A DNA stretch of 64,000 nt from Escherichia coli (GTDB lineage: Bacteria; Pseudomonadota; Gammaproteobacteria; Enterobacterales; Enterobacteriaceae). The stretch lies in assembly GCF_036507355.1 (NCBI RefSeq), contig NZ_AP027877.1, one strand, 5' to 3'. The notes below the pieces were generated by a model. The model was given only the letters and a program-made list of their open reading frames with translations. It had not been told where the DNA came from and searched no databases. The position numbers and the translations under genes are program-made. The first letter of the stretch is position 1. Each line of letters begins with the position of its first letter. Below, piece after piece: positions 26,051 through 32,647 of this stretch.

Positions 26051-29269
<3,219 letters not shown>

Positions 29270-29284
29270 GGTAATGACTCCAAC

Positions 29285-29788
29285 TTACTGATAGTGTTTT
29301 ATGTTCAGATAATGCCCGATGACCTTGTCATGCAGCTCCACCGATTTTGAGAACGACAGTGACTTCCGTCCCAGCCTTGCCAGATGTTGTCTCAGATTCA
29401 GATTATGTCGCTCAATGCGCTGAGTGTAACGCTTGCTGATAACGTGCAGCTTTCCCTTCAGGCGTGATTCATACAGCGGCCAGCCATCCGTCATCCATAC
29501 CACGACCTCAAAGGCCGACAGCAGGCTCAGAAGACGCTCCAGTGTGGCCAGAGTGCGTTCACCGAAGACGTGCGCCACAACCGTCCTCCGTATCCTGTCA
29601 TACGCGTAAAACAGCCAGCGCTGACGTGATTTAGCACCGACGTAGCCCCACTGTTCGTCCATTTCAGCGCAGACAATCACATCACTGCCCGGTTGTATGC
29701 GCGAGGTTACCGACTGCGGCCTGAGTTTTTTAAGTGACGTAAAACCGTGTTGAGGCCAACGCCCATAATGCGTGCACTGGCGCGACAT
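29285..29788 (-). CDS. insB: IS1 InsB (transposase C-terminal part, expressed as InsAB' by -1 frameshift)
   Basis: 167 aa ...[54 protein letters not shown]...; A6C slippery motif (revcomp of gtttttt at 29725-29731). Confidence 0.9.
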
Positions 29789-29982
29789 CCGACGCCATTC
29801 ATGGCCATATCAATGATTTTCTGGTGCGTACCGGGCTGAGAGGTGGTGTAAGTGAACTGTAGTTGCCATGTTTTACGGCAATGAGAGCAGAGATAGCGCT
29901 GATGTCCGGCAGTGCTTTTGCCGTTACGCACCACGCCTTCAGTAGCGGAGCAGGAAGGACATCTGATGGAAATGGAAGCCAC
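29707..29982 (-). CDS. insA: IS1 InsA (transposition repressor)
   Basis: 91 aa [43 protein letters not shown]... matches InsA. Confidence 0.92.
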
Positions 29983-30037
29983 GCAAGCACCTTAAAATCA
30001 CCATCATACACTAAATCAGTAAGTTGGCAGCATTACC

Positions 30038-31022: not shown

Positions 31023-31125
31023 AAATAGTCACTCTTAAAAAATATGAATATCCCCTCCAGAACACTGGAGGAGTACAAATTAATAAAACAATTAATGAGT
31101 TCTATTAATAGGTAATGACTCCAAC

Positions 31126-31629
31126 TTATTGATAGTGTTTTATGTTCAGATAATGCCCGATGACTTTGTCATGCAGCTCCACCGATTTTGAGAACGACAG
31201 CGACTTCCGTCCCAGCCGTGCCAGGTGCTGCCTCAGATTCAGGTTATGCCGCTCAATTCGCTGCGTATATCGCTTGCTGATTACGTGCAGCTTTCCCTTC
31301 AGGCGGGATTCATACAGCGGCCAGCCATCCGTCATCCATATCACCACGTCAAAGGGTGACAGCAGGCTCATAAGACGCCCCAGCGTCGCCATCGTGCGTT
31401 CACCGAATACGTGCGCAACAACCGTCTTCCGGAGCCTGTCATACGCGTAAAACAGCCAGCGCTGGCGCGATTTAGCCCCGACATAGCCCCACTGTTCGTC
31501 CATTTCCGCGCAGACGATGACGTCACTGCCCGGCTGTATGCGCGAGGTTACCGACTGCGGCCTGAGTTTTTTAAGTGACGTAAAATCGTGTTGAGGCCAA
31601 CGCCCATAATGCGGGCTGTTGCCCGGCAT
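31126..31629 (-). CDS. insB: IS1 InsB
   Basis: 167 aa, about 90% identical to the other copy; A6C motif (revcomp of gtttttt at 31576-31582). Confidence 0.9.
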
Positions 31630-31823
31630 CCAACGCCATTCATGGCCATATCAATGATTTTCTGGTGCGTACCGGGTTGAGAAGCGGTGTAAGTGAACTG
31701 CAGTTGCCATGTTTTACGGCAGTGAGAGCAGAGATAGCGCTGATGTCCGGCGGTGCTTTTGCCGTTACGCACCACCCCGTCAGTAGCTGAACAGGAGGGA
31801 CAGCTGATAGAAACAGAAGCCAC
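31548..31823 (-). CDS. insA: IS1 InsA
   Basis: 91 aa [43 protein letters not shown]... Confidence 0.92.
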
Positions 31824-32072
31824 TGGAGCACCTCAAAAACACCATCATACACTAAATCAGTAAGTTGGCAGCATCACCGAGTAATTCATTGATTCAACAT
31901 CTAATGACTATCCAATAAATAAATATGCGTGATATATAAAGCCCTTTCTTTAGTTTATTTTCAGAAAAAGATACACAAAATTTATATTTGGCATTTTCTT
32001 GTCTCTCCGACAGACTGAGCGAATTGTTATCAATGTTAACAAAACAAGAACAATTGGTTATAAGGAGAGAGT

Positions 32073-32647
32073 ATGCGTGTCATCACCCTGGCGGGTAGTC
32101 CTCGCTTTCCTTCTCGCTCCAGCTCCTTGCTGGAATATGCGCGGGAAAAACTAAATGGCCTGGATGTAGAGGTTTATCACTGGAATCTGCAAAACTTCGC
32201 CGCGGAAGATCTGCTTTATGCTCGTTTCGATAGTCCGGCACTCAATACCTTCACCGAACAGTTGCAACAGGCTGACGGGCTGATTGTCGCCACGCCTGTG
32301 TATAAAGCCGCTTATTCCGGTGCGCTGAAAACCCTGCTCGACCTGCTGCCAGAACGTGCGTTGCAAGGCAAAGTGGTGCTACCGCTGGCGACGGGCGGTA
32401 CGGTGGCCCATCTGCTGGCGGTCGATTATGCCCTTAAGCCAGTTTTAAGTGCGCTGAAAGCCCAGGAGATCCTGCACGGCGTGTTTGCGATGACTCACAA
32501 GTAATTGATTACCATCACAAACCCCAGTTCACGCCGAATTTACAAACCCGTCTTGATACCGCGCTAGAAACTTTCTGGCAGGCATTGCACCGCCGCGATG
32601 TTCAGGTTCCTGATCTTCATTCTCTGCGAGGTAATGCCCATGCGTAA
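32073..32647 (+). pseudogene. ssuE: NADPH-dependent FMN reductase SsuE, apparently frameshifted (truncated at codon 143)
   Basis: Frame from ATG 32073 stops at 32502-32504 (...HGVFAMTHK*); SsuE C-terminus [52 protein letters not shown] continues in the +2 frame to 32645-32647; consistent with a 1 bp deletion near 32485-32495. Confidence 0.7.

Follow-up and report, generated by a model that had tools for sequence, protein, structure and literature searches.

In E. coli K-12 the gene ssuE is followed by an intergenic region of 355 bp, by elfA (540 bp), which encodes the major subunit of the Elf (Ycb) fimbria, by a spacer of 82 bp and by elfD. In the 64-kb stretch of E. coli DNA analyzed here, to which we refer as the window, the starts of elfD (31022) and ssuE (32073) enclose an interval of 1,050 bp, of which 768 bp are an IS1 element. 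This raises the question of what became of elfA and by which route an intact insertion element came to stand in its place. A preliminary description of the locus had remarked that no pilin-like reading frame was left in the interval, which we confirm, and had attributed the arrangement to an IS1-mediated adjacent deletion or to recombination between IS copies, and not to a simple insertion. This reading is borne out by our analysis: in K-12, and likewise in relatives free of IS elements, 695 bp separate the sequences that flank the element in the window, and what the locus shows is a deletion associated with IS1 rather than a simple insertion.

The IS1 element and the native sequence around it

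The features of the locus are collected in Table 1, and the coordinates that had been proposed for IS1, elfD, ssuE and the interval between the two genes were all reproduced. At exactly 768 bp, and with the ends GGTAATGACTCCAACTTATTGAT... and ...ATCAGTAAGTTGGCAGCATCACC, the element agrees with the size of IS1 (~768 bp) and with its imperfect terminal inverted repeats of ~23 bp. The IRR end (GGTAATGACTCC...) lies on the left, at 31111, and the IRL end (...GGCAGCATCACC) on the right, at 31878. Both reading frames of the transposase genes are intact, as is the A6C motif for programmed -1 frameshifting (AAAAAAC) at IS1 position 306, and the entire element is 100% identical to copies in E. coli cS100a and WP5-S17-ESBL-10 that RefSeq lists as IS1A-family transposase. 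The 9-bp flanks, CTATTAATA and GAGTAATTC, agree in 3 of 9 positions, and the 8- or 9-bp duplication expected of a simple insertion is absent. Note that the missing duplication tells of the history of this copy and does not call into question that it is an IS1.

Table 1. Features of the elf-ssuE locus in the window and of IS1 events mapped at the same locus in other E. coli genomes. Positions are those of the window unless marked L001, the K-12 reference segment whose position 1 is NC_000913 position 990000.
Feature	Position	Strand	Basis
Scar of a 186-bp in-frame deletion (62 codons) in elfC, the usher gene	28060-28066	-	alignment
Other IS1, simple insertion in elfC	29270-30037	-	sequence
elfD, chaperone gene, intact, 233 aa	30321-31022	-	ORF list
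elfA-elfD spacer, 82 bp, intact	31023-31104	-	aligned to K-12 L001 8409-8490
elfA remnant: last sense codon and stop (TAT TAA, minus strand)	31105-31110	-	alignment
Full-length IS1, 768 bp, IS1A type, no target-site duplication	31111-31878	- (transposase genes)	sequence
insB reading frame, 167 aa, intact	31126-31629	-	ORF list and translation
insA, 91 aa, intact	31548-31823	-	ORF list and translation
ssuE-proximal 194 bp of the 355-bp ssuE-elfA intergenic region, kept	31879-32072	+	K-12 L001 7707-7514
ssuE pseudogene	32073-32504	+	sequence comparison
ET210: simple IS1 insertion in elfA, 9-bp duplication GCTGGAGCA	L001 7985-7993		
3359: same ssuE-side junction as ET210; ~347 bp lost on the IRR side, no duplication	L001 7993		
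cS100a, WP5-S17-ESBL-10, PCP06171: common ssuE-side junction; other side at 7985, 8382 and 10622	L001 7816		
EC09: deletion with the ssuE-side junction of the simple insertion of GF66.1	L001 7593		
23AR1101, HCP4S3_I4, 2017.11.01CC: further deletions, 942 bp to ~4.2 kb			

On the elfD side the remnant of elfA is joined directly to the IRR end of the element. The elfD gene itself, whose product has identical counterparts widespread in E. coli, now stands without its native upstream gene and, most probably, without its native promoter. On the ssuE side a promoter-like site in the direction of ssuE (31960-31988) has been kept, and the first 9 bp of native sequence, GAGTAATTC, are a candidate remnant of the original IS1 target duplication. 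The ssuE gene is interrupted by a 1-bp deletion (a C at gene position 416, near window position 32487) that leaves 143 amino acids instead of 191, and the same allele is found in two assemblies of the same lineage (L010 and L011). SsuE, an FMN reductase, is thus truncated, while ssuA, ssuD, ssuC and ssuB appear intact from the list of open reading frames.

End points of the deletion and the lost sequence

The alignment with the K-12 interval that had been proposed as a check of the preliminary description yields precise end points. In K-12 MG1655, window position 31110 corresponds to NC_000913 position 998402, 6 bp before the end of elfA, and position 31879 to 997706, 194 bp upstream of the ssuE start codon; on the reference segment elfA extends from 7869 to 8408, with position 31110 aligning to 8403. 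The missing K-12 sequence amounts to 695 bp, made up of 161 bp upstream of elfA and 534 of the 540 bp of the gene. The window can be aligned to the ancestral sequence up to 31110 and again from 31879, so that the ends of the deletion coincide exactly with the termini of IS1. An ambiguity of 1 bp arises because IS1 and the deleted segment both end in a C. Being the outcome of a deterministic alignment, the deletion requires no chance model. The 695-bp segment is absent from the rest of the 64-kb window, in which a search with the ElfA protein matched only the paralogue ycbV, at 27% identity.

Of the two losses that had been proposed together, that of elfA is therefore directly observed, and that of the operon promoter is probable from the content of the deleted sequence. 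The K-12 elf operon is cryptic and a member of the H-NS regulon, SlyA binds to the 355-bp intergenic region, and a SlyA site has been proposed 8 bp upstream of elfA (PMC5797941). This intergenic region is AT-rich, with 27% G+C, and the deleted 161 bp comprise the ribosome-binding region of elfA. They also hold the proposed SlyA site and the only promoter-like match in the direction of elfA within the K-12 intergenic region, and for these two reasons we infer that the native elf promoter was lost.

Presence of elfA in the nearest relatives

Six relatives free of IS elements (L034-L039), found by a look-up with the ElfG protein of the window and encoding an identical ElfG, match the window at 99.9-100% identity to the left and right of each IS1. 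In every one of them an intact elfA of 179 amino acids lies between ssuE and elfD, and the flanks of the element are not contiguous but as far apart as in K-12. They possess neither an IS1 in elfC nor the 186-bp deletion in that gene. The elfA gene is thus ancestral at this position, and the deletion is derived and located exactly at IS1.

A simple insertion of IS1 into a lineage that had already been devoid of elfA, or a natural absence of elfA at this position, is highly improbable in view of these relatives. Some E. coli genomes with a PepN identical to that of the window (L028-L033) do lend it a measure of plausibility, as they are without the entire elfADCG-ycbUVF operon and their ssuE adjoins pyrD. 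However, they form a more distant group, with only ~96.6-96.9% identity in the ssu region, and they lack the whole operon and not elfA alone, whereas the nearest relatives have the gene. A simple insertion would moreover have left a duplication of 8 or 9 bp, at odds with the dissimilar flanks, and the ends of the deletion coincide exactly with those of IS1. The absence of the whole operon, which may be an old deletion or may predate the gain of the operon, is a different state that is uninformative on the ancestors of the window. Note that the gap between ssuE and pyrD in these genomes measures 236 bp (positions 16892-17127), and that ~75 bp of it align to neither flank in the window.

Further assemblies represent the lineage of the window itself. 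One of them (L011) is 100% identical over 6.6 kb, another (L010) 99.96% identical and a third (L040) 100% identical over 5.3 kb. All three have contigs that break off within the IS1 copies, at identical positions, and the ssuE-side junction is thereby independently confirmed. These data bear on the possibility that the structure is an artefact of assembly, with two IS1 copies on either side of elfA collapsed into one and 695 bp dropped. Repeat collapse is a known failure of short-read assemblers, but the finished chromosome contig of 4.64 Mb resolves two IS1 copies that are 1 kb apart, and L010 and L011 were assembled independently and show the same ssuE-side junction; we consider an artefact barely credible. 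As a side observation, L011, a Logan contig of 11,275 bp (SRR17480487), starts in IS1 at window position 31851 and is expected to end inside ompF (around window position 43125), which hints at a repeat or an IS element in ompF of that isolate; the gene is intact in the window.

Over 14 kb on the ssu-ompF side, the identity to complete RefSeq genomes of E. coli is at most 98.7%, and the lineage of the window is for this reason taken to be absent from that set. The whole structure and each of its junctions were found in 0 of 5,426 complete E. coli RefSeq genomes, where the nearest IS1 junctions are 14-26 bp off (strains H2, WP5-S17-ESBL-10 and 23AR1101). An exact-pattern scan of species-representative genomes for the actual ssuE-side junction alone gave no match, nor did a degenerate-pattern scan of a metagenome collection for both the real junctions and those of a hypothetical ancestor with a simple insertion at either site. 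An intermediate of the lineage, with one IS1 at either site, its duplication and an intact elfA, was found in none of the genomes or metagenome contigs scanned.

The second IS1 and the remainder of the window

Throughout its length the window is collinear with K-12 MG1655 (1,028,916 to 965,399, with the orientation reversed). Nothing but the two IS1 copies is inserted with respect to K-12, and these are also the only IS elements in 64 kb. The other three breaks all represent missing sequence, namely the 695 bp described above, 186 bp in elfC and ~160 bp between gloC and aspC. For the last of these, ~150-160 bp of K-12 (984320-984483) are absent at window position 45077-45087, and the gap may reflect variation in a repetitive extragenic element. 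The 186-bp deletion in elfC lies between 7-bp direct repeats (GTAGCCA).

The IS1 in elfC has the same orientation as the copy next to the elfA remnant, at a distance of 1,073 bp. As had been pointed out in the preliminary description, the flanks of the two copies differ in kind: the one in elfC is bordered by a clean 8-bp duplication, CAAAATTG, in contrast to the mismatched flanks of the other. The two elements are 91% identical, with 69 mismatches spread from position 19 to position 765. The copy in elfC is a divergent iso-IS1 with 99.9%-identical counterparts in many E. coli genomes, and the distribution of the differences shows that the element at the elfA remnant is not a chimera with it. 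We have considered whether the elfC copy arose from the other one by intramolecular transposition, and have rejected this in view of the 91% identity over the full length. Likewise, a Tn9-like composite transposon (IS1-elfD-IS1) with an outer duplication was rejected, given mismatched outer flanks and a separate duplication around the elfC copy. Between the two direct copies lie elfD and the 5' end of elfC, a segment that recombination could delete, although the divergence of 9% should make recombination between them rare.

Route of the deletion

The target duplication is missing because a deletion has taken place at the IS1. IS copies that lack a target duplication have been attributed to adjacent deletion or to recombination between IS copies, and in the lines of a long-term evolution experiment an IS had previously occupied the site in all 14 such cases of IS150, with deletions that often grew over time (PMC11708052). 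For the present locus we consider it probable that a simple insertion was followed by an adjacent deletion made by the transposase. In the first step, an IS1A-type element would have inserted simply into the AT-rich region between ssuE and elfA, most likely at the present ssuE-side junction and with GAGTAATTC as its target duplication. In the second step, the transposase would have joined the IRR end to a target 6 bp before the end of elfA, by the intramolecular replicative transposition that is the classical 'adjacent deletion' of IS1, and a circle unable to replicate would have carried off the 695 bp along with one of the two copies of the target duplication. The expected outcome is a single intact IS1 without a duplication, without the major pilin gene and without the native elf promoter.

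The genomes of other E. coli strains provide grounds for this preference, in that they contain both pairs of states before and after a deletion and nested deletions at the same locus (Table 1). In the ssuE-elfA-elfD region of complete E. coli genomes (L002-L009, L024-L027 and L041-L042) we have mapped 5 simple insertions (GF66.1, PEC389, EC590, H2 and ET210) and 8 deletions of 168 bp to ~4.2 kb. Strains ET210 and 3359 make up one such pair, with the same accessions for the neighboring proteins and with IS1 copies that differ to a similar degree from that of the window (97.7% and 97.9% identity, respectively). Across these sets the ssuE-side junction is fixed while the elf side varies, and it is by analogy to them that the ssuE-side junction of the window is taken as the probable site of the original insertion. 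In addition, the targets of IS1 frequently have a G or a C at both ends, a preference that we have used in choosing the ssuE-side site. The junctions at 7593, 7816 and 7985/7993 of the reference segment have been re-used by IS1 copies that differ in sequence. The IS1 of strain FDAARGOS_943, beside an IS5-family element, has a 9-bp duplication as well.

The same product could have been generated by RecA-dependent homologous recombination between two direct IS1A copies, inserted independently, one at the 3' end of elfA with the duplication CTATTAATA and one in the intergenic region with the duplication GAGTAATTC, an event that would remove elfA along with one IS copy. Such recombination is listed as a common cause of missing duplications (PMC11708052), and it would leave exactly what is observed, an intact IS1 whose left flank stems from one copy and whose right flank stems from the other. 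It also draws support from the frequency with which the locus acquires IS1. At least 82 of the 5,426 complete genomes, clonal relatives counted, have an IS1 within a few hundred bases of the ssuE upstream region, 25 of them in one orientation and 57 in the other, and two direct copies do occur 1,073 bp apart in the window itself. The recombination route nevertheless requires three events, against two for the adjacent deletion, and two IS1 copies flanking elfA are present in none of the genomes inspected. Nor is the element a mosaic with the elfC copy, though identical parental copies would leave no mosaic in any case. On balance we regard recombination as possible but unlikely, and favor the adjacent deletion for its smaller number of events and for the related states in other genomes. 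Note that both routes end in an identical product that the sequence alone cannot separate, and that a second insertion with subsequent recombination would account for the nested sets of other strains as well. The deletion, its end points, its derived state and the position of IS1 at the junction are seen directly; that the transposase and not RecA was at work, and that the ssuE side was the original insertion site, is no more than probable.

An orientation bias of IS1 at this locus was considered and rejected. A search with inverted ends retrieved the 57 additional genomes, many of them labelled ST361 or strain 361, and the apparent bias had arisen from the way in which matching pieces are joined. 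A broader reading of these events, which we put forward only tentatively, is that the ssuE-elfA intergenic region and elfA constitute a preferred landing zone for IS1, from which elf has been eroded repeatedly, mostly in one direction and across unrelated lineages, with the window as one instance, and that the loss might be selected. If so, the loss of elf would not be neutral but would remove a surface antigen while sparing the ssu genes. The enrichment of IS1 events over chance at this locus is a rough estimate, uncorrected for clonal relatedness.

Consequences for the Elf fimbria

A functional Elf (Ycb) operon comprises a major subunit, a chaperone and an intact usher. In the window the chaperone gene elfD is intact, but 6 bp are left of elfA, and elfC carries both an IS1 and the 186-bp deletion. 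Judged from this gene content, the strain cannot assemble the Elf fimbria, because elfA is lost, as most probably is the native promoter, and the usher gene is disrupted by two separate lesions. The IS1 itself holds a promoter-like match at 31871-31844 that corresponds to its weak promoter, and one may speculate that only read-through from it could reach elfD, 88 bp past the IRR end. Such read-through would be of no use, as elfC carries the second IS1 and the 186-bp deletion.

For annotation, the practical value of these findings is that the elf genes of this strain should be marked as remnants. The locus also offers a clean natural example, resolved to the base, of an IS1 without a target duplication that marks a deletion. 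Together with the nested deletions in other strains, the recurrent IS1 insertions at the locus illustrate, in a modest way, the dismantling of silent fimbrial operons by IS elements. A literature search retrieved no earlier description of an IS1-linked loss of elfA. The case is nonetheless one of routine decay of a cryptic fimbrial operon, in which the element, the operon and the mechanism have all been described before and which calls for no new mechanism.

Comparison with known systems

With respect to the K-12 operon elfADCG-ycbUVF, the window retains the same position, divergent from ssuEADCB, and intact elfD, elfG, ycbU, ycbV and ycbF genes, but unlike K-12 it has neither the gene for the major subunit nor the 161 bp of promoter-proximal sequence, and its usher gene is broken twice. 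Adjacent deletions promoted by IS1 are said to have been described by Reif and Saedler in 1975, and to be familiar from classical work on IS1 in the gal operon and on R plasmids. The structure in the window resembles them in its intact IS at a fixed junction, in the loss of sequence on one side up to a new target and in the absence of a duplication, and nested series with one fixed end are common to the classical deletions and to the other E. coli genomes at this locus. There is no difference in kind; the event in the window is deduced from its end product in a natural isolate.

A further parallel is found in the long-term evolution experiment with E. coli, in which deletions of the rbs operon are reportedly anchored at IS150. 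As in the IS-plus-deletion mutations of that experiment, repeated deletions of variable length extend from a resident IS into a dispensable operon without a duplication (PMC11708052). The laboratory cases differ in that their elements are of the IS3 family and not IS1, and in that they form a time series, where the present locus is known from natural genomes only.

In Shigella, IS elements including IS1 have disrupted or deleted genes for adhesins, flagella and curli (PMC7373316). The preliminary description had pointed to Shigella and EIEC for comparison, a hint that the origin of the window does not bear out, as its proteins are E. coli deposits (BED23017.1, BED23010.1 and BED23022.1 for SsuE, ElfG and PepN; locus tag VEE46_27850). 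Unlike the situation in Shigella, just two IS copies are present in 64 kb, both of them in the elf operon, and what is seen here is local decay and not a genome-wide expansion of IS elements.
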